DNA of 64,000 nt from contig DGUI01000027.1 in NCBI GenBank assembly GCA_002394605.1, positions 2,161 to 66,160 of the forward strand. Direction: 5' to 3'. The position numbers and the translations under genes are program-made. Below the pieces are notes generated by a model that was not told where the DNA came from, did no database searches, and worked only from the letters and a program-made list of their open reading frames with translations. Numbering within the stretch: the stretch's first letter is position 1; every line of letters begins with the position of its first letter. This DNA comes from Mageeibacillus sp. UBA4314. GTDB taxonomy: Bacteria > Bacillota > Clostridia > Saccharofermentanales > Saccharofermentanaceae. Below, one piece after another: positions 4,984 through 30,097 of the stretch.

Positions 4984-7698
4984 ATGAAAAATCTCTCAAA
5001 TTCAGCAAAATTTGAGGCAAAAAAACTGAAATTACAGCAAAGACGGGAGGATCTGCCCCAGTATCTGCTGGCGTTTCTTTTTCCGATGCTTACCGTAATA
5101 GCGGCTTTTGCCATCCTCCAGTGCTATCCTTTCGGCAACAGGACAATGCTGACGGTGGATCTCTATCACCAGTATGCACCGTACCTTGTGGCATTCAGGG
5201 ATAAGATCCTATCGGGGGACAGCCTGCTCTATTCGTGGAATGACGGTCTGGGCAATGAGTATTATGCTGCCTTTGCAAACTATACTGCCAGCCCTTTGAA
5301 CATCTTCTGCATATTTTTCACTGCCAAGACGATGCCGGTATTCATAGCATTCATAACTGCAGTAAGGGCCGGACTTGCGTCACTTACCATGACGATATTC
5401 CTCAAGGCGAACGATAATAACAAGCTCGACAACATAACCGTCGTATTTGCGGCTTCATATGCGCTCTGCGGATGGTTCGTCACGGATTTCTGGAACATAA
5501 TGTGGTGCGATGCCATGATCCTCCTTCCGCTTCTGTGCCTGGGACTTCGCAAGATGTTCCTCCAGAACAGCTGGTGGCTTTATATGGTTACTTTGGCAGT
5601 TGCAATCGCGACCAACTACTTCACGGGATACTTCCTTTGCCTGTTCCTCATATTCTTCGCCCCGATCTACTACATCATGCTCGCAGTTCCTGCAAAGGAC
5701 AAGACCGTTAAGAACAGATTCTCTGTCCTTAATCTAATAAAAGCAGCGGGCAAGTTCGGGTGTGCGAGCGTCATAGCAGGTGTATCGACGGCTTTTATCA
5801 CGATTCCTACATACCTGATCCTGCAGCACTGTTCCGCAACTGGCGGAGAGTTCCCCAAGGATTTCAACCTTACGGGTAATCTCTTTGATTTTCTCGGCAG
5901 ACTGATGGTCTCAGCGAGTCCTTCCATAAGGGACGGCATGGCAAATGTTCACTGCGGCATCGTAATAGTCTTTATGCTGCCCCTGTTCTTCATGCTCCCC
6001 AAGAAGTCCGGCATAGGACTCCGGCATAAGTTCGGTTTTGGAATAGCATTGGCGATCCTGTATCTGAGCTTTACCAACAGGACACTTAACTATATCTGGC
6101 ACGGCATGCATTTCCCGAATCAGATCCCTTACAGGGAATCGTTCCTCATGCCGTTCGTGCTTGTATTCATGGCATATCTCACGATAAGGAGGCTCAAGAG
6201 CATCCCGGCATCTGCAGTCGGTGCATCGATCGGAGGATCGTTCATCTATCTCGTGCTCTATGAAAAATTCGGCGAAGGGGAAGAGGGATATATCCAGATA
6301 GGTCTGACATTCCTGTTCATAATAGTCCAGGGCATCGCACTGAAGATAATAACGGACGGCAGGAAGTCAGGTCTGTTCTGCGAGACGCTGCTTACCGTCA
6401 CGATGCTCGTCGAGACTCTTGTCGGGAGCGTCGTGTCGATTGCGCTCGTTGCAAAGAACGAAGGCTTTGTCGGATATGATTTCTACGGCAAGAACTATCA
6501 GATCATAAAGGAATATGCGGATTCAGTCGAAGGAAGCGAAGGACACAGGTCTTTCGAGAGGAGCGAGCTGTTCCCCAACAATATCTGCAACATACAGTCA
6601 CTTTATAACATCAAGGGAATATCGATATTCTCATCAACGACGAGGGAGAGCTTCGTTAAGTACAACAGGAATTTCGGGTTCCACAACAATGGCATAAACG
6701 GCTTCAGGAATGCAGGTATAACCCGCCTCACGGCGTCCCTCTTCGGAGTTAGGAACCTTATTACGATCGAGGACACCAAAACGGTACCGCCTGTCTTTGA
6801 AGTCGAACATTCAGAAGGCGATGTTAAGGTGTACGGCAATCCTGATGCGCTTGCAGCAGGGTTTATGGTGGATGAGAGTGTCACAAAGTATGAGCCGAGC
6901 TGGAATGATTCCAATGCATTCCGCAAGACGAACGAGTGGCTTAATTCCATGGGTGTAAAAGGTGATACATACGAACAGATCGACATGGAGGCCATCGAGT
7001 CAGACAAGATGACAACGTCTTCAAGCGGCGGAAAGATGCTGTCATACTCCATCGTGACCGGCGTTGAGAAGCCTTCGTTCAAGATCTCGATAGATGATGC
7101 TTCCAGGGATGCTGACATATATGTCTATGCCAGTGCCAGCTGCGGCGGAACAGCGACCGTCAAGGTTGGAGATAAGGATGAGTATTCCTTTGAGATAAGG
7201 AGTTATCAGACCATATGTCTCGGGAAGTTCACCGGCGAGAAGATTACTCTCAATATCAAGTATTCCGGCAATCCCGGAAATTCGGTCATCGTATATGCGG
7301 CACAGCTGACTGATGCTGCTTTCCACAAGGCGATCGATACTCTGGGCAGGGATCAGCTGAATGTAACTGAATACAGTTCAGGCTATCTGAAGGGGCACAT
7401 TGATGTTACAAGGGACGGGCTCATGTTCATGTCGGTACCCTACTCAGAAGGATGGAGTGCCAGAGTTGACGGTACTGATATAGAGATAACGCCCATCGGC
7501 GATTCTTTTATCGGGATCAAGCTCGGCAAGGGCGGACATGATGTGGAGATTTCCTACATGCCTGCAGGATTAAAGGCAGGGATCGTGATTTCAGGCGTAA
7601 CCGTTGTGATAATGGCGGCTGTGATAGCCGTTACGGAGCTGATGAGAAGAAGGGCAAGTATCGATGAGACTTCTGAACAAGAAAAAGATCAGGTTTGA
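4984..7698 (+). CDS. YfhO-family GT-C polytopic membrane glycosyltransferase (copy 1)
   Basis: DLYHQYAP loop motif, many TMs, FPNQIPYRESF, C-terminal SVPYSEGWSARVDG + TM typical of YfhO. Confidence 0.88.
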   Translation: MKNLSNSAKFEAKKLKLQQRREDLPQYLLAFLFPMLTVIAAFAILQCYPFGNRTMLTVDLYHQYAPYLVAFRDKILSGDSLLYSWNDGLGNEYYAAFANYTASPLNIFCIFFTAKTMPVFIAFITAVRAGLASLTMTIFLKANDNNKLDNITVVFAASYALCGWFVTDFWNIMWCDAMILLPLLCLGLRKMFLQNSWWLYMVTLAVAIATNYFTGYFLCLFLIFFAPIYYIMLAVPAKDKTVKNRFSVLNLIKAAGKFGCASVIAGVSTAFITIPTYLILQHCSATGGEFPKDFNLTGNLFDFLGRLMVSASPSIRDGMANVHCGIVIVFMLPLFFMLPKKSGIGLRHKFGFGIALAILYLSFTNRTLNYIWHGMHFPNQIPYRESFLMPFVLVFMAYLTIRRLKSIPASAVGASIGGSFIYLVLYEKFGEGEEGYIQIGLTFLFIIVQGIALKIITDGRKSGLFCETLLTVTMLVETLVGSVVSIALVAKNEGFVGYDFYGKNYQIIKEYADSVEGSEGHRSFERSELFPNNICNIQSLYNIKGISIFSSTTRESFVKYNRNFGFHNNGINGFRNAGITRLTASLFGVRNLITIEDTKTVPPVFEVEHSEGDVKVYGNPDALAAGFMVDESVTKYEPSWNDSNAFRKTNEWLNSMGVKGDTYEQIDMEAIESDKMTTSSSGGKMLSYSIVTGVEKPSFKISIDDASRDADIYVYASASCGGTATVKVGDKDEYSFEIRSYQTICLGKFTGEKITLNIKYSGNPGNSVIVYAAQLTDAAFHKAIDTLGRDQLNVTEYSSGYLKGHIDVTRDGLMFMSVPYSEGWSARVDGTDIEITPIGDSFIGIKLGKGGHDVEISYMPAGLKAGIVISGVTVVIMAAVIAVTELMRRRASIDETSEQEKDQV

Positions 7699-9940
7699 TC
7701 TGCATTTGATACTGGCTTTCGTTCTGCCTGTCGTGATCATGGCTCTTGCCTTTGCGGCGGCGCAGATCAAGCCGGGCAGCATCCTTCCCGAAGAAGCAAC
7801 ATTAAGGTATTCCGAGATGGATGATGATATCCTTTGCTCTGTCGACGGGCAGATCAGTTCCTGGCTTACGGTAAGGGAATCGTTTGCTTCACAGGATAAG
7901 CTCGAAGGCATGGGAGGTGTCGAGCTGCTCATTACGGAGTATATGGATCCGTTCTTTATCCTGTCCCTGGGACTGCCCGTAAGCTGGCTGCAGGTCTTCT
8001 ACATGGTCTGCTATTTCCTGCGGTTCGGTCTCGCGGGGATCACGATGTTCCTTTTGTTGGACTGCTGCATAAAGGGTGAACGCAGTTTCAGCCTGTTCAT
8101 GGCAGTACTCTATTCTGTCTCGGCGGTCGCAATGCTGTCAGCCGGATCTGTATCCCTGATGAACCTTTATATCCTGTTCCCGCTGTTCCTGAGATACATG
8201 GATGCGCTTATTACGGGCGGGTCCTTTGTATCAGCAAGATACATACTTGTCAGCATGCTGGTGTACATATCGGGCGTTACAGGTCTTATCCAGGGCTGGA
8301 TCATGACCATATTGTTCGGAGTCTTCATATCGGTATTAAGATACGGGAAGTTCACGGCAGTATTCAATTCCCTGTCGCGGATAGTGATAAACTCGTTCGT
8401 TGGGGTTATCCTGACGGGGATCGTTAACATCCCGAGGCTTATGTCCATCAGTTATGAGAGTATTACGCCGGAGATCTTCGAAGAGGGAGAGATGAGATAT
8501 ACTTTCTTCGACCTTGTCTCATCCGTCGCGAGCGGCAGATCCGTAGATTCATCTGATGTCCTGGTACCTGCGGTCTATATTGGCATATTTACCGTCATGC
8601 TCGTTATCCTGCTGTTCCTTAACAGATATGTCCCGGTCAGGATCAAAGCTGCAGTTGCGGTGCTGACGGTGATCATATATGTCACATGTTCTTATACGGC
8701 AATAAGTGATGTGCTGTCGTTCACAGGCATCTCAACCGCATGTCAGGCTGCCCGTCTTGGAGGACTTACTGTCATGCTCTTTGTCAGCGCAGGCGTTTCC
8801 CTTAAGAACATCAGCGGCCTTTCCAAAGGAAGCATATATGCTTCCATTCTGTTCATGATCGCGGTCGTATGCATAGCAAATAATTCGGAGAATATCTACG
8901 GATACATGAATTACCAGCTCTTCATGACGGTAATATCAGCCATAGTTTCCGGTGTCTTTCTGCTGTCATATCTGGAAGGTGCAAAGAGATCTTATATGAC
9001 GGCTTTCTTTGCTGCCGCATTCATCGCTCTTATCATGAACTGCGGATATGTGTTCATGATGTCGGATGTCTCGCCTGAGGATTATGAGTGCGTAACATAC
9101 GAGTCAGGGACCGGAGATCTCCTGAGTATGCCTTCGAGGATACCGGTATTAGGTGACAGGGTCAGCTATGTTGTCGTTCCTTCTGACGGTTTTACCCCTG
9201 AGGATGGGGATGATCCTGCACTGGCTGTCAACAAGATCGCAAAGTGCATTCAGATCGATGAAGTATTCTCAGGATATGATACGGAGGAGATCATCAATAA
9301 CGGTTTTGAGTCTGAAGACGGCAGATATGTGCTCAAGGAGGATGAAAGCGAAATGATCCTTGGCATTGACGTTGACGACGGCGAAGACATATATGTCAGT
9401 TCAGGACTTAATGTGCCTATTACGATGGCGGAGATGCGCTTCTCCCTGTATGATGAGCCGGATGATCATTTCTTCCACGGACCGTTCCTCGAATGCATAT
9501 CTTATGACGGCAACACTTTTGAGGTCCAGCTGTTAGGCGGCAAGTCAGGCGGCAAGTCCGGACGTATCGGAGTATATACCCTTAACTCACACGAGCTTGG
9601 CAAACTGAAGATGGTCACAAGGCAGTTAGGTTCCGGCAAGTTTACGGTCAGTTCGGATATGGCCGGTGATAATAAAGGTTCAAAAACTCTCATTACAGGA
9701 ATCCCTTATAATGATAATATTAAAGTAAAGGTGAATGGCAGGAATGTTGATACCGCTGATTATCTGAACAGGGTCATCGCGGATATCGGGGATGTCGGAT
9801 CCGCACCGGTTGTTGAGATCACAGCTGAACTGCCCGGCATCTTTGCCGGAACGGTATTGTCTCTTGCCGGATTGGCGGTCTTTGTCTGGATCGCCTTCCA
9901 TAACCTCAGAGAAGGAGAGGAGAATGTGAGCCATGCTTAA
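7664..9940 (+). CDS. Divergent YfhO-like membrane protein (copy 2)
   Basis: Same TM layout and C-terminal 'ITGIPYNDNIKVKVNG...TM' as YfhO, but the N-terminal D-x3-Q motif is not recognisable; TTG start overlaps copy 1. Confidence 0.65.
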   Translation: MRLLNKKKIRFDLHLILAFVLPVVIMALAFAAAQIKPGSILPEEATLRYSEMDDDILCSVDGQISSWLTVRESFASQDKLEGMGGVELLITEYMDPFFILSLGLPVSWLQVFYMVCYFLRFGLAGITMFLLLDCCIKGERSFSLFMAVLYSVSAVAMLSAGSVSLMNLYILFPLFLRYMDALITGGSFVSARYILVSMLVYISGVTGLIQGWIMTILFGVFISVLRYGKFTAVFNSLSRIVINSFVGVILTGIVNIPRLMSISYESITPEIFEEGEMRYTFFDLVSSVASGRSVDSSDVLVPAVYIGIFTVMLVILLFLNRYVPVRIKAAVAVLTVIIYVTCSYTAISDVLSFTGISTACQAARLGGLTVMLFVSAGVSLKNISGLSKGSIYASILFMIAVVCIANNSENIYGYMNYQLFMTVISAIVSGVFLLSYLEGAKRSYMTAFFAAAFIALIMNCGYVFMMSDVSPEDYECVTYESGTGDLLSMPSRIPVLGDRVSYVVVPSDGFTPEDGDDPALAVNKIAKCIQIDEVFSGYDTEEIINNGFESEDGRYVLKEDESEMILGIDVDDGEDIYVSSGLNVPITMAEMRFSLYDEPDDHFFHGPFLECISYDGNTFEVQLLGGKSGGKSGRIGVYTLNSHELGKLKMVTRQLGSGKFTVSSDMAGDNKGSKTLITGIPYNDNIKVKVNGRNVDTADYLNRVIADIGDVGSAPVVEITAELPGIFAGTVLSLAGLAVFVWIAFHNLREGEENVSHA

Positions 9941-10922
9941 TTTCCCTATAAAAGACGGTGCCGAGTTTGTCGTTTTCGATATGGAGTGGAACCAGCCCAT
10001 ATACGGAAAGGAATATGATATCGACGTATCCACGCTTACCGGGGAGATCATCGAGATCGGTGCAGTCAAGTATGTATATGAGAATGGTCATATTATAAAG
10101 ATGAAGTCTTTCTCAAGGGATATTAAGCCCGTCGTATATACCAGCATACATTATCATGTTAAGAAGGTTACAAACAAGACCAACAGTGATCTGCAGCGCG
10201 GTGTCTCCTTCGCAAGGGCGTATAACGACTTTGCCAACTTCATCGGTTCTGCGCAGATCCTCATCGGATGGGGCAATTCTGACCCTGCCATGCTCAAGCA
10301 GAATCTCAAGTTCTTCGACATGGATGATGACCTGCATATCTATTTCCTCGACCTCCAGCCTGTGTTCTCGCTGTTCGGAGGGGAGAGGGGACGTCAGAGG
10401 AGTGTTGAGTTTGCCGTGGACTATTATGGCATCACCAAATCCAACGGATTCCATTCGGCAACGTCGGATGCGATATATACGGGTAAGATATTTGAGAAGA
10501 TATTCGAATGCAATAAGACGGCTCAGGTCCTGTCGGCGATATCAAGTTCTGCCATCGATCCGGATGTTGTAAGTGAATATACATTTGTCGGAAGTCCATC
10601 CAAGGATCCGGCCAAGGCTTTCGAAGGGGTTGATGCATTCTGGAAGAAGTGTCCCATTTGTGACAGCACCCTGTCTGAGAAGATACCGAGGTTCCGTATC
10701 AGAAAATCAGAATATGCGCTGTTCTACTGCAGGAACCATGGTGAATTCTTTGCCAGGAACAGGGCAAAGAAGAACCGTGACGGCGATACATATGTTGCCT
10801 CAGTGCTCAGGATAGCCACCCAGAATGACTATTATCTGGTCGCTTCCAAGAAGGAGGAATTTGACAAGTTTGGCATAGAAGGCGAGCCTAAGGAAAAGGA
10901 AGAGAATACGGAAGAAAACTGA
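9933..10922 (+). CDS. DEDDh 3'-5' exonuclease (KapD/ERI-like) with C-terminal Cys/His zinc-binding domain
   Basis: VVFDMEWNQ, IIEIGAVK, WGNSD, HSATSDA motifs; CPIC...C.NHG. Confidence 0.8.
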   Translation: MLNFPIKDGAEFVVFDMEWNQPIYGKEYDIDVSTLTGEIIEIGAVKYVYENGHIIKMKSFSRDIKPVVYTSIHYHVKKVTNKTNSDLQRGVSFARAYNDFANFIGSAQILIGWGNSDPAMLKQNLKFFDMDDDLHIYFLDLQPVFSLFGGERGRQRSVEFAVDYYGITKSNGFHSATSDAIYTGKIFEKIFECNKTAQVLSAISSSAIDPDVVSEYTFVGSPSKDPAKAFEGVDAFWKKCPICDSTLSEKIPRFRIRKSEYALFYCRNHGEFFARNRAKKNRDGDTYVASVLRIATQNDYYLVASKKEEFDKFGIEGEPKEKEENTEEN

Positions 10923-10981
10923 CTTATTAACAATTTGTTCACACTTTGTGCAAAAAAAATTAGCAAATTTGAAATCTTTTG

Positions 10982-11010
10982 TTGAAATTTGTTACAGGAT
11001 GTTTTAGAAT
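10982..11010 (+). promoter_or_regulatory. Sigma70/SigA-type promoter of the large pilin-like gene
   Basis: TTGAAA-N17-TAGAAT upstream of ATG 11065. Confidence 0.6.
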
Positions 11011-11064
11011 ACGGATAACAAATATAAAAAGGCAAACTATACATACGAAGGGAAGGTACTTCAT

Positions 11065-13020
11065 ATGATCAGAAAGTCAAAGATAAATGGTGACAAGCAA
11101 GGTATCATTCTTGTTATGGTCCTCCTGATCGTTGCAATGGCGATGATCTTCATCTCTGCGGCTCTGTTGCTTACAAATTCAACAAGGAGCAGACTCTACA
11201 ACAACGCAGAAGAGAGCCAGGCAAGACTTACGGTTACATCTGCTGCCGAGGCTTTATATCAGGCTCTCGAGATGCAGGAGATCAGTGACGATACGCTCGG
11301 AGCTCTTGCTGCAGGATCCGGTTCTACGTTGACATTGACAGTAGATGACGGAACAGTTGCAGGTATGGGTACCGCAGCTGATAACTGCACGAAGGTTCAT
11401 ATCTACGAGAAGAAGGTCAGCTCTGTTGACTATGTTTACATGGATTTCACAACAACGATCGGTCCCAAGTCCGAGAATGTCCGTATGATCCTCAAGGCTC
11501 CTACGCCTCCGGTCAAGACTAACCTCTTCAGCACAGTCATGGACCTCGCAGGTGCTGCAGGCGACCAGAACCTCGCTCAGTTCAATATCGGTGAGGGCGG
11601 CGGATCCAAGAAGGACAATGTTGTTGTCGTTCGTGGTTCAGGTAAGAAGTATGTTATCGACCGTGCAAACCAGGATATCTATTCAACTCATATCTTCGTT
11701 GGTGAGACAAGTTCAACATCGATCGATGTATGGCTCAGAGACTCATCATACTACGGCGATCTCGTATTCTACGGCGATTATGCAACACTTCACTGGGATC
11801 TCCAGCCTAAGATCAAGGGTAATGTATATTTCCTCGGCAAGTCTTCCGGTACTGACAAGAACGCTTTTACAGGTGTTGACAGCACATCAAGGACTTTCGG
11901 TGAGAACTCAGCTTCATGGGTATTTGTTAACCGTGTAGCAAATGGTGACACAGACCGTGTTGAGAACATGCTCAAGAACAAGACTTGCGTTCTCCTTCTT
12001 GACAGCTCAAACGACACAGGTGCAAGTGTAAGCTGGGACGATGACAATGCTTCCGGAATCTCTGCTTCTCAGAAGTCAACATGGAAGTCAAGTTATACAG
12101 CAGGTTCTTCCAAGATCACAAATCTCAAGAAGGCCATCAAGGATTACATGAGTTCAACATTTGACGGTGACGGAGCTTTCCCTACGACCGATCAGGCTTT
12201 GAACACTGTACATGTAAACAAGTCAAGCTCGGGAGCTGCTCAGTACACAGCTTCTAACTTCCTCAACACGTTTGCATATTCAGCTTCACATAAGACATTC
12301 CTCCCTGCAGGCAACTACAGGATCTATGATTCAGGTTCAGGTTCTCACAGCATGAACACATCAGCCAAGAACGGTCAGGGAGACATCAAGTATGTATTCC
12401 TTAACGGTGCATTTGATTACAACATCTACTTCGGCGCTGACTACGACATGACCGGTGTACTCTTCGTACAGCTTGGCGGTACAAAGAATTCTATCTGCAA
12501 CTTCATCCTTGAGAAGAATTGCGACCTGACACTCGGCTATTCGAACTACACAAACAATGATTACTACGGTACCGGTTTTGTATCAGTAAGTTCTTCAGGT
12601 TATTCAACTCCCGAGGCTATGTACACGGCATTTAGCACAATGAAGATGGGTTCAACAACAGCTTCTGTATATGACGGAACAAAGAGACCTTATATGTACA
12701 TCTACGGTATCGGCGGTACAAACGGCAACCATGTAACATTCGGTAACAGCGGCGGTGCAAGATGCGTAGTTGAAGCTTATGTTGGTCTGTTCGAGGATTC
12801 ATATCCCGGTAAGTCCATACTTGAGTTCTCAAATCAGCCTGTATACTTCTACGGCAGAATCCAGGCAGCTAAGTTCATCGCAGATACGAACAGCAACAAT
12901 AGCCACATCTACTATTGTCCTGACCCTAACTCTGATGATGATGATTCACCTAAGCCTGCAAGGACCGGTTACTCAGTATACGATGTTATCTACTACTACG
13001 ATTTCTCATCTCCTACATGA
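11065..13020 (+). CDS. Large PilX/GspK-type minor pilin (putative tip pilin/adhesin)
   Basis: Class III signal KQG|IILVMVLLIVAM with no Glu5, followed by 'EESQARLTVTSAAEALY' (PilX-N pattern); large Ser/Gly/Asn-rich beta-type C-terminal region. Confidence 0.78.
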   Translation: MIRKSKINGDKQGIILVMVLLIVAMAMIFISAALLLTNSTRSRLYNNAEESQARLTVTSAAEALYQALEMQEISDDTLGALAAGSGSTLTLTVDDGTVAGMGTAADNCTKVHIYEKKVSSVDYVYMDFTTTIGPKSENVRMILKAPTPPVKTNLFSTVMDLAGAAGDQNLAQFNIGEGGGSKKDNVVVVRGSGKKYVIDRANQDIYSTHIFVGETSSTSIDVWLRDSSYYGDLVFYGDYATLHWDLQPKIKGNVYFLGKSSGTDKNAFTGVDSTSRTFGENSASWVFVNRVANGDTDRVENMLKNKTCVLLLDSSNDTGASVSWDDDNASGISASQKSTWKSSYTAGSSKITNLKKAIKDYMSSTFDGDGAFPTTDQALNTVHVNKSSSGAAQYTASNFLNTFAYSASHKTFLPAGNYRIYDSGSGSHSMNTSAKNGQGDIKYVFLNGAFDYNIYFGADYDMTGVLFVQLGGTKNSICNFILEKNCDLTLGYSNYTNNDYYGTGFVSVSSSGYSTPEAMYTAFSTMKMGSTTASVYDGTKRPYMYIYGIGGTNGNHVTFGNSGGARCVVEAYVGLFEDSYPGKSILEFSNQPVYFYGRIQAAKFIADTNSNNSHIYYCPDPNSDDDDSPKPARTGYSVYDVIYYYDFSSPT

Positions 13021-13059
13021 TAGGATGAGCACATCAGAGAGTTAAGCACAAGCAAGAAC

Positions 13060-13087
13060 AACGGGCTGTCAGAGATGACAGCCCGTT
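13060..13087. terminator. Intrinsic terminator between convergent genes
   Basis: AACGGGCTGTCA-gaga-TGACAGCCCGTT perfect 12-bp stem. Confidence 0.8.
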
Positions 13088-13115: not shown

Positions 13116-13547
13116 TTATTCTATCGTCAGGAGATAAGCGCCGGAGTCTTTCAGCCAGACAAGAGTCTGGAACATCTCTGAGGCAGATATGCCGATCATG
13201 TCGGAAGGAATGGATATTCCAAAAAGAGAACAGCTCTCCGTACAGACGTATACGGCATCAGTCTTGCCGGAAGATACAAGGTCTTTGAACTTACCGCTAA
13301 GCACATTATCCGGACAGATCAGCTTTGTACCGGTGTCTATGAGATAGATACTGTCAATATGTTTATTGGCAGTAATGAGCGAATCAAAGAGTTCGCGGAG
13401 AAGATCCCTGCCATGCTTGTTGTCAGATGAATAATGATCGTGCTTTATGAACAGGGATATCCCGTAAGAACTGCTTTCTGCTTCGAGTTCATATTCATCC
13501 TTGACCAGGAACCCGAGATCATTTGCTTCCTTTGGATTGTTTCTCAT
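13116..13547 (-). CDS. DsrE/YedF-C-like hypothetical protein
   Basis: 'GRDLLRELFDSL...IYLIDTGTKL...VYVCTESC' resembles the DsrE-type domain of YedF; ATG 13547 has AGGAG RBS. Confidence 0.5.
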   Translation of the reverse strand: MRNNPKEANDLGFLVKDEYELEAESSSYGISLFIKHDHYSSDNKHGRDLLRELFDSLITANKHIDSIYLIDTGTKLICPDNVLSGKFKDLVSSGKTDAVYVCTESCSLFGISIPSDMIGISASEMFQTLVWLKDSGAYLLTIE

Positions 13548-14280: not shown

Positions 14281-14295
14281 TAACGCCTCCTCTTA

Positions 14296-15363: not shown

Positions 15364-15374
15364 AGATCAGCCGG

Positions 15375-16100: not shown

Positions 16101-16107
16101 AGTAAAA

Positions 16108-18857: not shown

Positions 18858-18875
18858 TATTAGGAGGTAACAAAA

Positions 18876-19994: not shown

Positions 19995-20030
19995 TAACTT
20001 AAGTTAAAATTTTAGGAGGAGGATAAAGAA

Positions 20031-21233: not shown

Positions 21234-21259
21234 TGTTAATTATTGAAAGGAGATAAATA

Positions 21260-22378: not shown

Positions 22379-22393
22379 GGAGGAGGAAATAAA

Positions 22394-23341
22394 ATGGCAG
22401 GTTTAGGTTCAAAGAAAGATATTGCTAAGCGCGATCTGAATTTCTTTGCAGAATTTACTGCAGCAGCAGCAAAAATGACCAGATTGCTTGGTTATGGCGT
22501 TGTTGTCGGTATCGTAGTCGTAGCGATCATCGTAGGTTTTATCGTATGGGGAATCATCCGCAATGCGATTACACAGTCAGCCATCAACGATCTTGAGGCT
22601 CTGCTCGCATCCGATGAGTACGCAGGTCTCCAGGAAGATGCCGTAAGACTCAATTCAGAACTCACAGGATTCAACAATTACTACTATGCTCTGTCTCAGA
22701 TGAGAGAGCAGGTTGACAAGATCCCCGCTGTCCCCGTTGAGCTTACAAACATCATGGAGAAGTCAATACCTTCTGACTCTTACATTGATAAGTATGAGAT
22801 CAGCCAGACAGGTATGCATGTTGAGGGTTACACATTCAGCTACTACAGTGCATTGAATTTTGTAAATCTCCTCAACAAGTCAGATGTATTCTCTCTTCCC
22901 GTTCAGCTCGAGGTTCAAAGGGTAGATCCTTCAACTATCGGAAGCGTTGAGACATTCATCAGACAGGATGGAAAAGTAAATGCCATCAACAACTATTATC
23001 ACTTCATCGTAGAAGGTCTGCTCGTCAGCGAGGTACACGTATCTGTATCCAACTATCTGCGCACACCTGACGGAAAGGGCGGATTCGTCATTTCCAGCCT
23101 TGGCGGTGTAGAGGTTGAGAAGTATAAGGCAGGAAGCACATATGAAGTTAATAACATCGCTACATATGAGCAGTCCGGTGTAACATACAACCTGTCTCAG
23201 GTTGCTATCAACAGGGCAACACTTGCTCAGGACAAGGTTACACAGCTTGCAACAGACAACAAGATCAGCGGTATTGCTAATGACGATATCGAGATCCAGC
23301 TGTACTACAGTCCTGCAGAGAAGAAGGAGGGTGAAGCATAA
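22394..23341 (+). CDS. pilN: PilN-like protein with extra C-terminal domain
   Basis: N-terminal 'LNFF' PilM-binding motif, TM, coiled coil, 'IP.D..I...I......VEG.T....A..FV..L..S..F' PilN core. Confidence 0.75.
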   Translation: MAGLGSKKDIAKRDLNFFAEFTAAAAKMTRLLGYGVVVGIVVVAIIVGFIVWGIIRNAITQSAINDLEALLASDEYAGLQEDAVRLNSELTGFNNYYYALSQMREQVDKIPAVPVELTNIMEKSIPSDSYIDKYEISQTGMHVEGYTFSYYSALNFVNLLNKSDVFSLPVQLEVQRVDPSTIGSVETFIRQDGKVNAINNYYHFIVEGLLVSEVHVSVSNYLRTPDGKGGFVISSLGGVEVEKYKAGSTYEVNNIATYEQSGVTYNLSQVAINRATLAQDKVTQLATDNKISGIANDDIEIQLYYSPAEKKEGEA

Positions 23342-24360
23342 TGAATAATTTATCATTACGTGAAAAAGCAATTATCTATATTCTTTTCCTGGTTGTTATC
23401 GCTTTGCTTGCTTATCTGTTCGGTATCAGGACACTTAATAATGCAAACGCTGATATGCAGATCCAGCTTCAGGAACTTCAGGCAAGGAAGGAACAGCTCG
23501 ATCTCCTGAAGCAGGAAAACCAGAAGACTCAGGGAGCCATTGAGACCCTGAAGTCTGACATCGTTAAGTATGAGCAGTCTTTCATCAGCGAGATGAAGAC
23601 AGAGAACCTTGAGAAGTATGTTCTCGATGAATTCGAGAAGGCCGGCATGCCTTTCCTCGCAGACGTTAAGTCTGAGGATGTTCAGATGGAAGCCATCGTT
23701 CTTGCTGACGGTACATCTTCCAATGACTCGGTCAACTGTAAGAGGATCATCGCTAAGTATGCTACAACAGACGGATACGAGATCACACAGTACAATCTCA
23801 ATGAGAGCAACTATGATGAGAATGGCAACCCCAGGACATCATACCTCAAGGATATGCTGAACAAGACAGGTGTCTATAACGAAGAGAACAGGTATGGTTA
23901 CCAGGAATTCATTAAGGCACTTGCTACGATGGAGAAGGCTGATCCTGATTGCGTTAAGATCACAAAGATCGGTGCAGAGTCAACTCATGGTTACCTGACA
24001 TTGACAGCAGCTATCGATTTCTACGGAACAACTCTCACCAACAGACAGTCACAGGAGTCTGATGCTCATAAGGCTAAGTTCTACGGTGTATGGAACGGTG
24101 ACGGAGTCGATACAAAGGGCGGATTCATCGGAATGCCTTACAAGGTTGATAACCCTGACAGCTTGTGGAATGGTATCCTTATCGATCCTAACGAGCTTAA
24201 CGGATTCATCGAGAGACCGTTCGCAGCTTATCTCTCCAATGCACGCTTCACACAGCTCCTCTCTGAGAAAGGACTTGAGAAGATCGTTGGCGGCGGTATT
24301 GTTGCAGCTGATTCTGATAAGGTTCCTGAGCCTACTCCGGCTCCCGATGATGCAGCATAA
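23341..24360 (+). CDS. PilO-like protein (extended)
   Basis: 'LSLREK.II.IL' N-terminus, TM, coiled coil; translationally coupled to pilN (TAATG). Confidence 0.65.
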   Translation: MNNLSLREKAIIYILFLVVIALLAYLFGIRTLNNANADMQIQLQELQARKEQLDLLKQENQKTQGAIETLKSDIVKYEQSFISEMKTENLEKYVLDEFEKAGMPFLADVKSEDVQMEAIVLADGTSSNDSVNCKRIIAKYATTDGYEITQYNLNESNYDENGNPRTSYLKDMLNKTGVYNEENRYGYQEFIKALATMEKADPDCVKITKIGAESTHGYLTLTAAIDFYGTTLTNRQSQESDAHKAKFYGVWNGDGVDTKGGFIGMPYKVDNPDSLWNGILIDPNELNGFIERPFAAYLSNARFTQLLSEKGLEKIVGGGIVAADSDKVPEPTPAPDDAA

Positions 24361-24429: not shown

Positions 24430-24473
24430 GTAGTTACAAACCAATAAACAAAAAATTCTAGGAGGAATTTACC

Positions 24474-24674
24474 ATGAAGAAGATTCAGAAGACAAAGAAG
24501 GGCTTTACACTCGTTGAGATGGTACTCGTTATTGCTATCATCGTTATCCTTGCTGCAGTTCTTGCACTTAGCATCGGTACATACCTCGGCAGAGCAAAGG
24601 CAGCTGCTTCTTCCATCAGCTTGCACAACTGGTCAATCTCTTCTGTAGACGCAGAGATCCAGGCAGCTCTCTAA
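24474..24674 (+). CDS. pilA: Very short type IV pilin 1 (probable major pilin; 56 aa mature)
   Basis: KKG|FTLVEMVLVIAIIVILAAV class III signal; strong AGGAGG RBS; own promoter and terminator. Confidence 0.88.
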   Translation: MKKIQKTKKGFTLVEMVLVIAIIVILAAVLALSIGTYLGRAKAAASSISLHNWSISSVDAEIQAAL

Positions 24675-24699
24675 TAGTTAGACTACTAGCTGACTAATG

Positions 24700-24728
24700 A
24701 CACGGCGGGGCAACCCGCCGTGTTTTTT
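24700..24728 (+). terminator. Intrinsic terminator after pilin 1
   Basis: ACACGGCGGG-gcaa-CCCGCCGTGT followed by a T run. Confidence 0.9.
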
Positions 24729-24766
24729 ATCAATTCATAAATTTTTAACAATTTGTTAATTTATTG

Positions 24767-24795
24767 TTGAAAAAAGTTGAAACACCAAGTATAAT
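24767..24795 (+). promoter_or_regulatory. Promoter of the pilin 2-3-4 operon
   Basis: TTGAAA-N17-TATAAT. Confidence 0.75.
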
Positions 24796-24829
24796 CTAGA
24801 TGTAAGAAAATACTTTCAGGAGGCACGCC

Positions 24830-25045
24830 ATGCACAAAGTGATGAAGTGTAGAAGAGGATTCACTCTGGTAGAGATCGTTTTGGTCATTGCAATTATCCT
24901 TATACTTGCAAGTGTTACCGCATTGAGTGTTTCAGATATATTGAGGAATAGTCAGCGTGGTCAATCGTCCGTCAGTGATGCCGTGACCTCTGCGAAGTCT
25001 GAGATCAGCAGCAAAGAAGCAGCGCTGAGAGGCTATGGTTTCTAA
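24830..25045 (+). CDS. Very short type IV pilin 2 (61 aa mature)
   Basis: RRG|FTLVEIVLVIAIILILASV; AGGAGG RBS. Confidence 0.85.
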   Translation: MHKVMKCRRGFTLVEIVLVIAIILILASVTALSVSDILRNSQRGQSSVSDAVTSAKSEISSKEAALRGYGF

Positions 25046-25060
25046 GTTGAGGAGGTATAT

Positions 25061-25645
25061 ATGATCAGGATTACTAAAGTTAAGACAAGTGTAGCCAAAG
25101 TTGGTTTTACACTCCTTGAAGTTATACTTTCAGTTGCCATCATGCTTGTATTGACAACGATGATGATGAACGGATTCGCAGCAACGATGTCCTACTCATA
25201 TCACACATCTGTGTTTGCATCAACAGCAGGTTCCAACTATGCTGATGCCATCACAAATGTTGCTACCAATTCAGCAAGTGGTCGTGGTGCTTACACAACA
25301 ATGGGTCCCGGTTACGGATCCATTACTGATAATGACTGCAAGAAGATCCATTTCTCACAGGCTATCGCCGGTACAGGCCAACAGGATATCAACGTACAGA
25401 TGTACAGAGAGAACGGCGGTGCTTCTGATGCCAACTCTCATGCATACAGATCAGAGGCTGAGAACTATGGTGAGGCAGCTGATGGTACATACGCTAACAA
25501 CAGGACTGCTTTCTACTACTATCCTAAGTACATCAAGAATGGTTCCCGTGAGAATACCCGCGGTAAGATATCCATCTATCAGTTCGGTGATGAATTCTGG
25601 TGGTATGATGAAGTTAACAACATGAAGATGTTCAAGGCATATTGA
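25061..25645 (+). CDS. Minor type IV pilin (PilV/GspI-like position)
   Basis: KVG|FTLLEVILSVAIMLVL; globular C-terminal domain. Confidence 0.82.
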   Translation: MIRITKVKTSVAKVGFTLLEVILSVAIMLVLTTMMMNGFAATMSYSYHTSVFASTAGSNYADAITNVATNSASGRGAYTTMGPGYGSITDNDCKKIHFSQAIAGTGQQDINVQMYRENGGASDANSHAYRSEAENYGEAADGTYANNRTAFYYYPKYIKNGSRENTRGKISIYQFGDEFWWYDEVNNMKMFKAY

Positions 25646-25665
25646 TAGGGCCCGGAGGTGTTAAG

Positions 25666-26232
25666 ATGACGGTTGTACATAAGAGTAATAAAAAAGGTTT
25701 TACATTACTTGAGATGATGCTCTCGATCGCTATCGTAACGATCGTAAGCGGATGCCTGGTAACATTGATGATCGGAGTTAAGGATTCTTATATCAATACA
25801 TATAACTCTGATGACTCTACAGATTATGCAATGCTCTTTGCCAAGGCTTTTGAGAATTCCTTCCTTGCAACGGTACAGGACTGTAATGGACACTCAGCAA
25901 CAAATGCTACATGGAAGATCGGAAACTATACCGGTGCAGACGGGCAGACACATCAGGATCTTCTGTTGAATGGTGCACCTCAGCTCAAGTTGTCACAGAT
26001 GAAGGTGCAGCAGAAGGGTACGAATACGATTACCGACAAGTGGAAGATCTCTATGACATATGAATATGTCATGGCTTCCGGAATGGTTAAGTACACGATC
26101 ACAGTTGTTGATAATTACTATGATCCCGGCGTTGTAAAGTGTGTATATAATGGTGGATTCTTCCTTCCTCACTTCGATAACGGAACGATCGATTCACACG
26201 ATGGTACATACATTACCTTCAGAGCTGCATAA
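25666..26232 (+). CDS. Minor type IV pilin (PilW/GspJ-like position)
   Basis: KKG|FTLLEMMLSIAIVTIV; ATG 25666 after GGAGG. Confidence 0.82.
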   Translation: MTVVHKSNKKGFTLLEMMLSIAIVTIVSGCLVTLMIGVKDSYINTYNSDDSTDYAMLFAKAFENSFLATVQDCNGHSATNATWKIGNYTGADGQTHQDLLLNGAPQLKLSQMKVQQKGTNTITDKWKISMTYEYVMASGMVKYTITVVDNYYDPGVVKCVYNGGFFLPHFDNGTIDSHDGTYITFRAA

Positions 26233-26255
26233 GAAGGATAATTTGAATAAGAGTA

Positions 26256-26288
26256 CAGGGGGCGGCCATTGTGCCGCCCCTGAGTTTG
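26256..26288 (+). terminator. Intrinsic terminator of the pilin operon
   Basis: GGGGCGGC-cattgt-GCCGCCCC stem followed by TGAGTTTGTT. Confidence 0.7.
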
Positions 26289-26314
26289 TTAACAAAAAAC
26301 CATTCAACTTATTG

Positions 26315-26343
26315 TTGACAAATGATGAAGACCAACATATAAT
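26315..26343 (+). promoter_or_regulatory. Consensus SigA promoter of tRNA-Gly
   Basis: TTGACA-N17-TATAAT. Confidence 0.9.
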
Positions 26344-26357
26344 AATTAAGCTGTTGT

Positions 26358-26432
26358 GCGGGATTAACTCAGTGGTAGAGTGTCACCTTGCCAAGGTGAA
26401 AGTCGCGAGTTCGAATCTCGTATCCCGCTCCA
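26358..26432 (+). tRNA. tRNA-Gly (GCC)
   Basis: GCGGGAT acceptor stem, D-arm AGTGGTAGAG, anticodon arm TCACC-TTGCCAA-GGTGA, GTTCGAAT T-loop, encoded CCA. Confidence 0.98.
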
Positions 26433-26433
26433 T

Positions 26434-26460
26434 AACGTCCCTGATGCAGGGACGTTTTTT
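26434..26460 (+). terminator. Terminator after tRNA-Gly
   Basis: AACGTCCCTG-atg-CAGGGACGTT followed by TTTT. Confidence 0.85.
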
Positions 26461-26518
26461 TATGCACATACAAAGCAGCCTGATACAGGTTATAATAGAG
26501 CAAAAGGAGGTATGATCT

Positions 26519-26770
26519 ATGCCCGGTTATTCATTTACTCCCAGGGGAGTCTGTTCAGTCAACATCACTTTCGATATCGAGGACGGTAAGATCCATAATG
26601 TGAAGTATGTCGGCGGCTGTGACGGAAATCTCAAAGCCATCGGCAAACTTGTTGAGGGAAAGGATGCCAGGGAAGTTGCTGACATACTTCGCGGCAATGA
26701 CTGCCGGGGAAGGGGAACATCTTGTGCAGATCAGCTGGCCAGGGCTATTGACAGCGCACTTCAAGCCTGA
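26519..26770 (+). CDS. TIGR03905-family TSCPD domain protein
   Basis: PRGVCS...F, FVGGC.GNL.AIGKLVEG, C.GRGTSCADQLA. Confidence 0.88.
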   Translation: MPGYSFTPRGVCSVNITFDIEDGKIHNVKYVGGCDGNLKAIGKLVEGKDAREVADILRGNDCRGRGTSCADQLARAIDSALQA

Positions 26771-26807
26771 TAGATGATATAATGTTTAGTGGTAGCGATA
26801 GCTGCAT

Positions 26808-29387
26808 TTGGAGGTTGTTTTGCAGAATAAGTCGAAGTCGAAGTTATATTATGCCTTACTGGCATTTCTTTTTCTGCTTATACTTAAGCTTATCCTGTTC
26901 TTTGATGACAAACTCCTCGTATGGCTCTATGACGGCGCATCGCAGCATCTGTCAGCTCTCAATTATTACTCTCAGTACTTAAGAGACGTTTTCTCCGGGA
27001 TATTACAGGGGAATTTCCAGATCCCCAGGTTCGATCTGTCGATCGGTGAGGGAAGCGATATACTAACTACTTTCCATTATTACTGCATCGGCGATCCTTT
27101 CGCATTCTTCAGTGTTTTCTTCAGGGGCGAACTGGTCTATCTGTACTATGAGTTCTCGGTGTATCTGAGGTTATTCCTGTCGGGATTCTCGTTTCTGTTT
27201 TTTGCAAAACATTTCGACGGCGGAAGTCTCATGAAGAAGGCTTCGGACATCGTGGTCGCGGCAGCAGCTCTCATGTATGCGTTCTCATGCTGGTCGGTAA
27301 CTTGCATGGGCCGTCACCCGTTCTTCCTTAATCCGTGCATATTCATGCCGCTGATCCTTGCAGGCGTCGAAATGATCATAAGCAGAAAAAAGCGAGGCGT
27401 CCTTCTTCTATCCGTATTCCTGTCATCACTTTCCAATCTCTACTTCCTTTACATGATGGCACTGATCACAGTGATCTATACCATGGTCCGCCTGATCGTG
27501 ATGCATGGAAAGAACATAAGAGAATACATAAGGCCGTTATTGACTGCCGCTGTTGAGGCCGGCATTGGCGTAGTCCTGTCGGGTGCCGTTTTCTACCCGG
27601 TCGCCAGGGTATTTCTGGGCGACTCAAGAGTCGGCGGGAGCAATAACGTAGGAATATTCTACCCGCTTAAGTATTATCTGACGTTCCCTCAGTCGCTGAT
27701 ATCCGGCAACCTTGATTACTACAGGCTGTTCGGGATAGGTGCAGTAGGTGTCATCATAATCTATCTGGTATTTGTGAGGAGCTCTTCAAGACTTCTCAAG
27801 ATATTCTTTGTTATCACGGCGCTCTTCCTGATCTTCCCGGTATTCGGCACGGTCATGAACGGCTTTGCCTATGCATCCGACAGATGGTGTTTTGTCCTGC
27901 CACTGCTTACCGGTGCGGGGCTTATTGTAATATGGAACGATCTGGTCAACATAAAGAAGACCGATGCGGTAATACTCATGATCTTAATGGCAGGCGCCAT
28001 CGTGCTGTCTGTAATAGGCAAAGATATGCAGGGGATCACCGTTATGTCATTAGGCGTGGTCATGATCCTTATCATGTTTGTCATGAAGAGATTGAAGGTC
28101 AGAAGCGGCATTGCCATAGGAGTGATCGCCGTATCTGTCCTCTGCGGCATGATCTTCTATATCATCCCGTTCCTGCCGCAGCTCGCACCGATGAGCTGGC
28201 TCAATGTCTACTACAACGGCAATGAAGCGGCATACATCGCAGACATGGATAAGTCGCGTCCCTTAAGATACTCCGGCAATATCCTCACCGAAAACGTATC
28301 TCCGCTGTCACAGATCTCTTCAACGCAGTTCTACTGGAGCAACGCCAATCCGTATGTCGGAGAGTTCAGGACCGATATCGCGTCCCCTGAATACCGCCTC
28401 TATTACTACACTGGATACAATTCCTCATACACGCTCCTCAATCTGTCGGGAAGCAGATATTATGCGCAGTCCGGAATGCAGACAGAACCGCTTCCTTACG
28501 GTTACGAGAAATGCGCACATATGGATATCGGCTATGACATAATGCGCAATGTAAACGATACCTCTCTGGTCTATTCCTACGACAGAACGGTTCCTGAGCA
28601 GCAGTGGAAGAGCCTTACGCCTACTGACAGGCAGGTGCTTTTAGCACAGGCAATGGTCGTACCGGAAGATAACGGTCCTTCAGTTGACATTGCCCCGACG
28701 TCCGTAAGTTCAAGAGTTACGTCAACGGATAATGATCAGGTCACGATCGAGTTCGACGGCAGGCCCGGCAGCGAGACATATATCACATTCAGCAACATGA
28801 GATCAGATCTTGCAGATACTTTATTCTTCATTTTCGTGAATATCCCTGAGACAGGGGAGACATATGTGCTCAACTATTACACGATGTCCAACTGGTACAA
28901 CGGAAGGGATGAGTTCTCGCTCAACTTAGGCTGGCACGAGGATGCGATCCACAAAGCCGTTATCACGGTCGAGAACGATCTGAAATATCAGTGTGACTAT
29001 TCCGTATCCTGCATCGATATTAACAGTTCATCCGGGAATATCAAAAGAAGGTTTGAGGTCAAGCCTGAGAACCTGAGCGTTGAGGCGCGCGGCACAAAGA
29101 TCAGCTACTCTGTCGATTCTCCTGATGAGAGATATTATGTTCTGGCAGTTCCGTATTCCAAGGGATGGACGGCTTATGTTGACGGCAGCAAGGCTGAGAT
29201 ACTGCGATCAAATATACAGTACATGGCTGTTAAGCTTGATAAGGGCAGGCATGATGTCATGTTCGTCTATTCGGGTGATCAGGACACGGGTATTTATATG
29301 AGCATAGCAGGACTTATTGCTACCGCAATATATCTTGTCTGTGGTAAAATCATAGATAGAAAACGATCAGAGGAGATTGCACCATAA
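26808..29387 (+). CDS. YfhO-family GT-C glycosyltransferase (copy 3)
   Basis: DGASQH loop, W-less 'IGEGSDI...YYCIGDPF', HPFFLNP, NGFAY..DRW, AVPYSKGWTAYVDG + C-terminal TM. Confidence 0.88.
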   Translation: MEVVLQNKSKSKLYYALLAFLFLLILKLILFFDDKLLVWLYDGASQHLSALNYYSQYLRDVFSGILQGNFQIPRFDLSIGEGSDILTTFHYYCIGDPFAFFSVFFRGELVYLYYEFSVYLRLFLSGFSFLFFAKHFDGGSLMKKASDIVVAAAALMYAFSCWSVTCMGRHPFFLNPCIFMPLILAGVEMIISRKKRGVLLLSVFLSSLSNLYFLYMMALITVIYTMVRLIVMHGKNIREYIRPLLTAAVEAGIGVVLSGAVFYPVARVFLGDSRVGGSNNVGIFYPLKYYLTFPQSLISGNLDYYRLFGIGAVGVIIIYLVFVRSSSRLLKIFFVITALFLIFPVFGTVMNGFAYASDRWCFVLPLLTGAGLIVIWNDLVNIKKTDAVILMILMAGAIVLSVIGKDMQGITVMSLGVVMILIMFVMKRLKVRSGIAIGVIAVSVLCGMIFYIIPFLPQLAPMSWLNVYYNGNEAAYIADMDKSRPLRYSGNILTENVSPLSQISSTQFYWSNANPYVGEFRTDIASPEYRLYYYTGYNSSYTLLNLSGSRYYAQSGMQTEPLPYGYEKCAHMDIGYDIMRNVNDTSLVYSYDRTVPEQQWKSLTPTDRQVLLAQAMVVPEDNGPSVDIAPTSVSSRVTSTDNDQVTIEFDGRPGSETYITFSNMRSDLADTLFFIFVNIPETGETYVLNYYTMSNWYNGRDEFSLNLGWHEDAIHKAVITVENDLKYQCDYSVSCIDINSSSGNIKRRFEVKPENLSVEARGTKISYSVDSPDERYYVLAVPYSKGWTAYVDGSKAEILRSNIQYMAVKLDKGRHDVMFVYSGDQDTGIYMSIAGLIATAIYLVCGKIIDRKRSEEIAP

Positions 29388-30097
29388 TGGATACTTTATA
29401 TGTTGTCATGCCGGCTTATAACGAGGAAGAGAATATCGAGGCTGTTATAAGACAGTGGTATCCGGTGCTGGCATTGGGTTCTTCCGATTCCAGACTTGTC
29501 ATAGCTGACAGCGGAAGCGTTGACAAGACACACGATATAATCGAGGGGATGAAGGAGAACGGCTATCCTCAGCTTGAGGCATATCCCGATACATTGAAGC
29601 AGCATGGCCCCAAGGTTATCGCACTCTACAAGTATGCGATCGATCATGGCGCTGATTATGTTTTCCAGACTGACTCTGACGGACAGACAAATCCTGATGA
29701 GTTCACGGCATTCTGGGAGATGAGGAATGCATATGATGCTCTGTTCGGAAGAAGGGTCAACAGGGGAGACGGTAAGTCGAGAGCTTTCGTGGAGAAGGTT
29801 GTATGTTTCCTTCTGAGGCTTTATTTCGGAGTTAAGGTCAAGGATGCGAATGCGCCATTCAGACTCTTTAAGACTGATGTGCTCAGCAAGTATGTCGGAA
29901 GATTCGAAGAGGATTATAACCTTCCTAATATCATGCTCACGACATTCTATGCTTACTATCATGAGAATTACTGTTTCCGCGACATCACTTTCAAGCCCAG
30001 GCAGGGCGGTGTTAATTCCATTAACATCAAGAAGATCTTTAAGATCGGCTGGAAGGCATTAGGTGATTTCCGCAGGTTCAAGAAGACGATGCGATGA
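29387..30097 (+). CDS. GT2 glycosyltransferase (polyprenol-phosphate sugar synthase, CsbB/GtrB/DPM1-like)
   Basis: VVMPAYNEEENI, D.GS.D.T, QTDSDGQ, D.NAPFRL; coupled to YfhO-3 (TAATG). Confidence 0.9.
   Translation: MDTLYVVMPAYNEEENIEAVIRQWYPVLALGSSDSRLVIADSGSVDKTHDIIEGMKENGYPQLEAYPDTLKQHGPKVIALYKYAIDHGADYVFQTDSDGQTNPDEFTAFWEMRNAYDALFGRRVNRGDGKSRAFVEKVVCFLLRLYFGVKVKDANAPFRLFKTDVLSKYVGRFEEDYNLPNIMLTTFYAYYHENYCFRDITFKPRQGGVNSINIKKIFKIGWKALGDFRRFKKTMR

Follow-up and report, generated by a model that had tools for sequence, protein, structure and literature searches.

Three YfhO-family glycosyltransferases around a type IV pilus operon of Mageeibacillus sp. UBA4314 are probably general cell-envelope decoration enzymes

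Does a bacterium that encodes glycosyltransferases on both sides of its type IV pilus genes use them to glycosylate the pilus? The question is raised by a stretch of 64,000 nucleotides, here called the window, from Mageeibacillus sp. UBA4314 (GCA_002394605.1, contig DGUI01000027.1, positions 2,161 to 66,160 of the forward strand), where the pil operon lies between two tandem genes for GT-C glycosyltransferases of the YfhO family (YfhO1 and YfhO2) and a third such gene (YfhO3), which is followed by the gene of a polyprenol-phosphate sugar synthase-like glycosyltransferase (GT2). An earlier note, made from the letters of this DNA alone, had proposed that one or more of these enzymes glycosylate the short, headless pilins of the operon. 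Our analysis leads to another answer: it is probable, at roughly 0.65, that the three YfhO proteins are general cell-envelope decoration enzymes of an expanded GT-C set and not a pilus-dedicated system, and the evidence suggests that their placement around the pil operon reflects the history of the neighbourhood.

Gene identities, operon boundaries, synteny and phyletic patterns were observed directly. The host genome is a 2.26-Mb draft in 56 contigs. Proteins of the window were identified by Pfam and NCBIfam scans, promoters and terminators were called as pattern matches, and membrane helices were taken from a hydropathy scan, which is a crude method. For synteny within the genus, 35 kb around PilB were taken from 20 congeners (PilB 77-93% identical) and the window proteins were mapped onto each. 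Many of the relatives compared are fragmented metagenome-assembled genomes, and all positive synteny falls inside one bacterial family, so that few independent events are represented. In a wider survey, 250 genomes of Clostridia were scored, of which 95 carry a PilB orthologue, and 44 of these, outside the genus, were checked for YfhO. The scans confirmed the gene content and coordinates of the earlier note for the three YfhO proteins, GT2, the pil set, the short pilins and tRNA-Gly; YfhO1, YfhO2 and YfhO3 all exceed the PF09586 gathering score of 28.5 bits and thus belong to the YfhO family.

On the right-hand side, YfhO3 (859 amino acids (aa); 26808-29387, forward strand; PF09586, 212 bits) opens an operon separate from pil. 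An overlap of the form TAATG joins the end of YfhO3 to the beginning of the GT2 gene (29387-30097, forward strand; 236 aa; PF00535), and one of the form ATGA joins GT2 to DUF2752, so that YfhO3, GT2 and DUF2752 form one operon; small membrane proteins with the Pfam domains DUF2752 and DUF4190 occupy 30094-30864 on the same strand. Between the pil operon and YfhO3 lies a forward-strand stretch (26258-26456) in which a 9-pair terminator after the last minor pilin gene (26258-26281) is followed by tRNA-Gly(GCC) (26358-26432), driven by a perfect 12/12 consensus promoter (26315-26343), and by a 10-pair terminator with a T-run directly 3' of the tRNA (26434-26456). On these predicted signals, two terminators and a separately promoted tRNA-Gly, the YfhO3 operon is transcriptionally insulated from the pil operon.

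The position of this operon is also confined to a narrow group of genomes. YfhO3 and GT2 lie downstream of pil in one subclade only, comprising the host genome, the congener G018, RUI031, YRB3002 and two metagenome contigs (L090 and L091). The module stands 0.6-5 kb past the pil operon in these six genomes, and in five of the six an opposite-strand TetR/YhgE pair, an insert of 4-5 kb, intervenes. Another contig, L092, also carries the YfhO3 module, but the 4.7 kb that it has upstream gave no pil gene call. Among the 20 congeners, YfhO3 and GT2 follow pil in G018 alone, and 18 have housekeeping genes there. The cultured Hungate-type isolate Ruminococcaceae bacterium YRB3002 (GCA_900099715.1, FMTG01000004.1; L084, L085) shows the same layout from HtrA through pil, an identical tRNA-Gly, and then YfhO3-GT2-DUF2752-DUF4190-metY. 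Within the subclade DUF2752 is conserved with YfhO3-GT2, and GT2 is 86-89% identical whereas YfhO3 is 48-57% identical, as judged from orthologues at the genome loci; wider searches give 48-60% identity for the YfhO3 orthogroup. The YfhO3 differences are spread along its whole length, as seen on comparing 26808-30097 of the window with L044, L046 and L085. One further congener, G029 (L033 and L034, joined, 24523-27261), has a different YfhO of 912 aa directly after the minor pilins, 22% identical to YfhO1; it sits behind its own terminator and promoter, and the YfhO1 orthologue of that genome is split by a TAA stop.

The distribution of GT2 follows neither the pilus nor YfhO3. Of 36 congeners, 34 have a single copy of its orthologue (48-71% identical), which is found too in the family labelled f2, where PilB is absent; in the 17 other genomes examined it was never found near pil, YfhO or DUF2752. 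The nearest solved structures of GT2 are the polyprenyl-phosphate transferases ArnC and GtrB. The hydropathy scan predicts no membrane helix for it, so that the pair of C-terminal helices of CsbB and GtrB is lacking; its C-terminus is basic and amphipathic. No GtrA gene was found in the locus. The only GtrA-family match of the genome over the Pfam cut-off, a candidate flippase (49147-49830, forward strand; PF04138, 40.6 bits), lies 19 kb on, among unrelated genes and unlinked to YfhO. Of the three-component GT2-GtrA-YfhO system named in the earlier note, the locus shows a GT2 in one operon with YfhO3, but no GtrA gene beside it and no CsbB/GtrB helices in the GT2. DUF2752 was considered as the missing third component and rejected, since it is coupled to GT2 only in the subclade and is absent beside GT2 in the 17 other genomes.

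Six YfhO paralogues are encoded in the host genome. An Asp following the first membrane helix, a candidate for the catalytic acidic residue of the first outside loop, is aligned in all six, in a part of the alignment that is gappy. On contig C17 (L041, 8057-12013) a CsbB-like GT2 of 322 aa and a YfhO of 973 aa form a divergent pair beside a Bac_transf sugar transferase. In G005 and G020 this contig is collinear with sequence ~20 kb upstream of that matching the window's contig, so that one stretch of 55-60 kb probably contains four of the six paralogues. A chance co-location of P ~0.002 can be calculated if the 2.26 Mb are taken to have five YfhO units, each independent, and the target to span 33 kb, an assumption of independence that does not hold because the fourth paralogue is collinear ~20 kb upstream and the stretch is YfhO-rich. 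The closest paralogue of YfhO3 (24% over 912 aa) is on contig C31 (L042, 6779-12623), two genes from a PilT-like T2SSE ATPase of 373 aa, with a zinc-ribbon protein and a protein of 439 aa of unknown function in between. We take this pairing as chance, since congener contigs with the ATPase are without YfhO among the matches listed. The genome also holds two LtaS-like and three TagF-like genes, so that conventional acceptors are available.

Beyond the genus, YfhO and the pilus part company. In the order, YfhO is present in 61 of 61 genomes and a PilB orthologue in 42 of 61, and in the family labelled f3 YfhO and PilB are unlinked. Among the 44 PilB-bearing Clostridia checked, any YfhO occurs in just five, 39 being without it, and it is near pil only in the sister genus. 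Homologues of YfhO3 at 27-33% identity adjoin genes for an LtaS-like sulfatase, a TagGH-like ABC transporter, LicD, a CTP-transferase, GT2 enzymes and a second YfhO, or are inside a mobile element; none is beside pil genes.

Do the short pilins themselves look like acceptors? The pil genes are those of a Gram-positive type IVa pilus and their arrangement is conserved across the genus: PilB, PilT, PilC, PilM, PilN and a PilO-like protein (17112-24360, forward strand; PF00437, PF00482, PF11104, PF05137), the prepilin peptidase PilD (16108-16956, reverse strand; PF06750, 107 bits) and pilins with a G|FTLVE signal. These are, all on the forward strand, the short pilins pilS1 (24474-24674; 66 aa, 56 mature) and pilS2 (24830-25045; 71 aa, 61 mature), both with an N_methyl motif, and two minor pilins of 194 and 196 aa (25061-26232; class III signal sequence, N_methyl motif). 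A strong 11-pair terminator (24699-24724) stands directly 3' of pilS1, and pilS2 has its own promoter-like site (24767-24795, 11/12 consensus). Major pilin genes are usually laid out in this way, for high expression with attenuation. G018 and one metagenome contig have a third short pilin gene.

The pilin tails had been described as rich in serine and threonine (Ser/Thr). The counts are exact, with 8 of 36 residues in pilS1 and 11 of 41 in pilS2, but the description is weak: Ser and Thr make up 12.6% of the proteome, and 9.8% of its 36-aa windows reach 8 such residues and 3.0% of its 41-aa windows reach 11. The best 30-aa windows of the short pilins hold 8 and 11 Ser/Thr, against 15-22 in at least 35 other predicted proteins; many of the latter carry the stretch just after an N-terminal signal or anchor. 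Across orthologues (22 of pilS1 and 17 of pilS2) Ser/Thr account for as little as 0.07 and as much as 0.28 of the tail. In mature pilS1 only position 37, a Ser here, is Ser or Thr in all 22 orthologues, and no conserved Ser/Thr position was found in the pilS2 tail among its 17. A tracking of Ser/Thr content with YfhO3 was considered, the subclade tails having 0.20-0.28 against ~0.17, and was set aside because a single clade is a single event.

The left-hand YfhO genes belong to a different arrangement. YfhO1 (904 aa; 4984-7698, forward strand) matches PF09586 over its full length with 486 bits and is the best conserved of the paralogues, with 48-73% identity among congeners; the hydropathy scan gives it ~10 membrane helices, an outside domain and a final helix. 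YfhO2, a divergent paralogue of 758 aa in tandem with it (7664-9940, forward strand), matches in its N-terminal half only (49.5 bits) and evolves fast: identity is 44% in the closest relative and only 22-27% in the majority of congeners. On the same crude scan, all three YfhO proteins begin with ~10-12 membrane helices, followed by a large C-terminal domain on the outside and one more helix at the end; a PDB sequence search gave no match for YfhO1 or YfhO3. The stop codon of YfhO2 overlaps the start of a gene for an RNase T/DnaQ-like exonuclease-domain protein (9933-10922, forward strand; PF00929, 38 bits), and the three genes overlap or abut. The exonuclease gene always accompanies YfhO1/2, both in the congeners examined and in YRB3002 and the sister genus (G177).

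The fourth gene of this block encodes a large minor pilin of 651 aa (11065-13020, forward strand), preceded by a promoter-like site (10982-11010). Its AlphaFold2 model, built with 40 homologues (predicted local distance difference test, pLDDT, 83.3; predicted TM-score, pTM, 0.74), shows a 59-residue N-terminal helix (residues 11-69), a small beta head and a long beta-solenoid, and its best PDB match by Foldseek is the Thermus competence pilin ComZ (6qvi, E 1.5e-6). Both the model and this top match support the label of tip pilin that it had been given. There is a weak GspK match at the N-terminus. Ser/Thr make up 20% of the protein, with at most 13 in a 30-aa window. Homologues are 27-94% identical, and the named ones come only from Saccharofermentans, Clostridiales or Ruminococcaceae. 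A terminator-like hairpin with a 12-pair stem (13060-13087, reverse strand) separates the pilin gene from the convergent DsrE-like gene, the first of four opposite-strand housekeeping genes identified by Pfam and conserved in congeners (DsrE-like, DUF6062, Asp23-like and YebC; 13116-16100, reverse strand); four or five such genes set YfhO1/2 apart from the pil operon.

All 20 congeners examined have the block YfhO1-YfhO2-exonuclease-651-aa pilin intact, and so do YRB3002 and the sister genus. The longer order, unk544-(DAGK)-YfhO1-YfhO2-Exo-pilin, then (DsrE-like)-DUF6062-Asp23-YebC-(PilD), then PilB to the minor pilins, is kept in 18 of the 20. The other two, G001 and G006, have the left block on a separate contig, intact and with the 651-aa pilin gene included, the break falling between this gene and the DsrE-like gene. 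In G177 the block is inverted, contains an additional patatin-like gene and flanks the pil operon on the opposite side; the junction carries IstB-like, transposase and group II intron reverse transcriptase genes (L064 and L065, joined, reverse-complement, 17433-20750), and a simple inversion of the pil segment explains the arrangement. All three rearrangements break at the hairpin junction 3' of the pilin gene and leave 4984-13087 unsplit. Because the block leaves pil together with the pilin gene, YfhO1/2 are tied to the ComZ-like pilin gene and not to the pil operon. G002 and G013, considered as possible pilus-less congeners, gave no PilB match, but their contigs stop directly after the YfhO block. 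By the criterion of the earlier note, linkage of yfhO with pil genes in close relatives, that of YfhO3 and GT2 with pil is absent in 18 of the 20 congeners, while YfhO1/2 are kept beside the ComZ-like pilin. A DgkB-like lipid kinase gene divergent from YfhO1 was considered as a hint of a link to lipoteichoic acid (LTA) and dropped, since it is missing there in several congeners and separated in G177.

Several lines of evidence thus argue for general envelope decoration. YfhO3, GT2 and DUF2752 form their own operon, insulated from pil; YfhO3 and GT2 are by pil in one subclade only, GT2 being near-universal and located elsewhere; YfhO is found throughout the order yet in few pilus-bearing Clostridia; distant YfhO3 homologues lie in wall-polymer contexts, and the genome offers LtaS-like and TagF-like acceptor genes and the pair on C17; the pilin tails are not unusually Ser/Thr-rich and their Ser/Thr positions are not conserved as a whole, and glycosylation of LTA by CsbB/YfhO is established (PMC5836110). 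Sugar donors, flipping and acceptors can be assigned from the protein families only in conditional terms. A soluble or peripheral GT2 of 236 aa would load a nucleotide-sugar-derived sugar on undecaprenyl phosphate at the inner membrane face, the lipid-linked sugar might be flipped by another protein, for which the GtrA protein encoded apart at 49147-49830 is one candidate, and YfhO3 would pass the sugar to an acceptor outside the membrane. This acceptor would most likely be a teichoic-acid-type polymer or a wall polysaccharide, with the truly Ser/Thr-rich linkers of surface proteins as second candidate. YfhO1-YfhO2 would be a second unit without GT2 that may take its donors from elsewhere, for example from the CsbB-like GT2 on C17.

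Some observations weigh against this reading. Within the genus, YfhO genes have arrived beside pil on three separate occasions (those of the YfhO1/2 block, of YfhO3 in the subclade and of the YfhO in G029), and YfhO1-YfhO2-exonuclease stayed with the ComZ-like pilin gene in three rearrangements. YfhO-family enzymes are able to glycosylate proteins (10.1101/2024.05.05.592596), and a GT-C enzyme that glycosylates a Pseudomonas pilin provides a precedent (10.1101/2020.04.19.049825). In the closest relative, YfhO2 and YfhO3 have 44-54% identity against 92-98% for PilB, PilT, PilC and PilM, diverging as fast as exposed parts of the pilus; the cytoplasmic components of the machine are far better conserved than YfhO2, YfhO3, the 651-aa pilin, PilN, the PilO-like protein or the minor pilins. 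The acceptors of all these YfhO enzymes are, moreover, putative.

How far, then, may the pilus be a target? That at least one YfhO glycosylates some pilus component seems unlikely to us, and if one does, synteny would point to YfhO1/YfhO2 acting on the ComZ-like tip pilin as the most likely case, with the headless pilins less likely. Glycosylation of the tip pilin, or a need of this pilin for YfhO1 and/or YfhO2, could explain why the four genes cohere in 20 of 20 congeners, in YRB3002 and, with the patatin-like insert, in G177, and why the pilin gene in G001 and G006 moved with the YfhO genes and not with pil; the Ser/Thr content of the protein (20%, up to 13 per 30 aa) and its fast divergence, shared with YfhO2, are in keeping with it. 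The pilin gene has its own promoter-like site, however, the block is without a GT2, and all three breaks fall at the same strong hairpin junction within one bacterial family, so the cohesion may merely reflect a tolerated breakpoint; on balance we regard this explanation as quite improbable. It is a very improbable one that YfhO3 (with GT2 as donor synthase) and/or YfhO1/2 O-glycosylate the membrane-anchored pilS1 and pilS2 to give a sugar-coated filament. The precedents of TfpW and of YfhO-type protein O-glycosylation, the invariant Ser/Thr at position 37 of pilS1 and the YfhO3 module 0.6-5 kb past pil in six genomes speak for it, but YfhO3-GT2 is a separate transcription unit, 18 of 20 congeners lack it there although they share these pilins, GT2 is located elsewhere in most genomes and present in pilus-less families, the tails fall well short of the richest Ser/Thr stretches, YfhO3 homologues elsewhere keep wall-polymer company, and 39 of 44 pilus-bearing Clostridia are without YfhO. 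As first put forward, glycosylation of headless pilins by a system of the locus fails most of the tests that could be run, namely synteny, GT2 distribution, insulation, the distance of YfhO1/2 from pil and their parting from it in G001 and G006, Ser/Thr content and homologue contexts; the broader idea of pilus glycosylation keeps some plausibility from precedents and block cohesion.

A reading that leaves the pilus aside is that at least one YfhO paralogue serves broad protein O-glycosylation of the PgtC2/PgfM1 kind on Ser/Thr-rich linkers of lipoproteins and surface proteins, pilins being at most incidental. The mechanism is published for streptococci (10.1101/2024.05.05.592596), the best NCBIfam matches are PgfM1/PgfM2 for YfhO1 and PgfS for GT2, and the at least 35 predicted proteins with 15-22 Ser/Thr per 30 aa, low in complexity and many with the stretch behind an N-terminal signal or anchor, would be candidate substrates if any YfhO paralogue glycosylates proteins. 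The scores are, however, far under the equivalog cut-offs (233 and 229 bits against 1400 and 1500 for PgfM1 and PgfM2, and 34 against 500 for PgfS), so that orthology to Pgf is not indicated; PgfM1 and PgfM2 are the sole NCBIfam models matched by any of the three YfhO proteins and hence do not discriminate, and the contexts of homologues favour wall polymers. We consider this rather unlikely. General envelope decoration, most likely of wall polymers, remains the preferred reading.

If it holds, the locus adds one more rumen Firmicute to those that decorate their envelope with a paralogue-rich YfhO/GT2 set, and a caution that loose gene proximity inside a single genus is no evidence of shared function. 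Were a YfhO to act on the pilus after all, this would be the first YfhO-type glycosylation of a Gram-positive type IV pilus. It may then explain how filaments of pilins of 56-61 aa offer a surface for adhesion to plant fibre, and YfhO2, YfhO3 and the exposed pilus parts would owe their fast divergence to a shared arms race, for example with phages or over host binding. YRB3002, being cultured and of the same layout, makes the pilus question directly testable. In a literature search we found no paper that links YfhO to pilins. GP25 of Ruminococcus albus, cited in the earlier note as a glycoprotein, is a major pilin according to a review that says nothing on glycosylation, so that the label rests on older papers. 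Elsewhere in the window, 45268-55525 holds further envelope genes, for an 834-aa protein of unknown function, a cohesin/cadherin-like protein (47769-49208), a Mur-ligase-like protein and a GT87-like GT-C (53600-55525).

Comparison with known systems places these proteins further. Like ComZ of Thermus thermophilus (6qvi), the 651-aa pilin combines an N-terminal pilin helix with a head that carries a large beta-solenoid. Identity to ComZ is 11-12% and the TM-score low (0.24-0.38), however, the host is Gram-positive, and its gene stands apart from the pil operon and keeps with the YfhO genes. TfpW, a GT-C arabinosyltransferase, glycosylates the pilin in Pseudomonas aeruginosa strains of group IV (10.1101/2020.04.19.049825). 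The YfhO proteins resemble it in being polytopic GT-C enzymes whose outside domain is large, whose genes lie near those of pilins and which are presumed to use lipid-linked sugars. TfpW itself is Emb-like with a TPR domain and stands outside the YfhO family, and whereas tfpW immediately follows pilA, the nearest YfhO here is 1.8 kb past the last short pilin gene, with two minor-pilin genes, two terminators and a tRNA intervening, and YfhO3 is absent in most congeners. Pilin-dedicated enzymes such as TfpW and TfpO are encoded beside the major pilin and inherited with it, and the YfhO3 module is neither.

In streptococci, YfhO-family enzymes together with GT2 enzymes of the GtrB/PgfS type O-glycosylate extracytoplasmic Ser/Thr-rich regions of proteins (10.1101/2024.05.05.592596). 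The Pgf and GtrB-PgtC2 systems share with the present locus both enzyme families, the tandem YfhO paralogues (as PgfM1/PgfM2) and a genome with many Ser/Thr-rich linkers. They differ in that the proteins here are not their orthologues, the cluster is without epimerase and adhesin genes, and the short pilins, with at most 8 and 11 Ser/Thr per 30 aa against 15-22 in the linkers, are not Ser/Thr-rich disordered regions like the acceptors of those systems. The CsbB-GtcA-YfhO system carries out lipid-linked glycosylation of lipoteichoic and wall teichoic acid in Bacillus subtilis and Listeria monocytogenes (PMC5836110). It departs from the present arrangement in several respects: the GT2 of the window has 236 aa and is without the two C-terminal membrane helices, GtrA/GtcA is missing from the locus, the GT-C gene comes first, and YfhO1/2 have no partner GT2. 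In common with it, YfhO3 is a GT-C encoded in one operon with a GT2 related to polyprenol-phosphate synthases, and the genome holds a classical CsbB-like GT2/YfhO pair on C17 along with LtaS-like and TagF-like genes.

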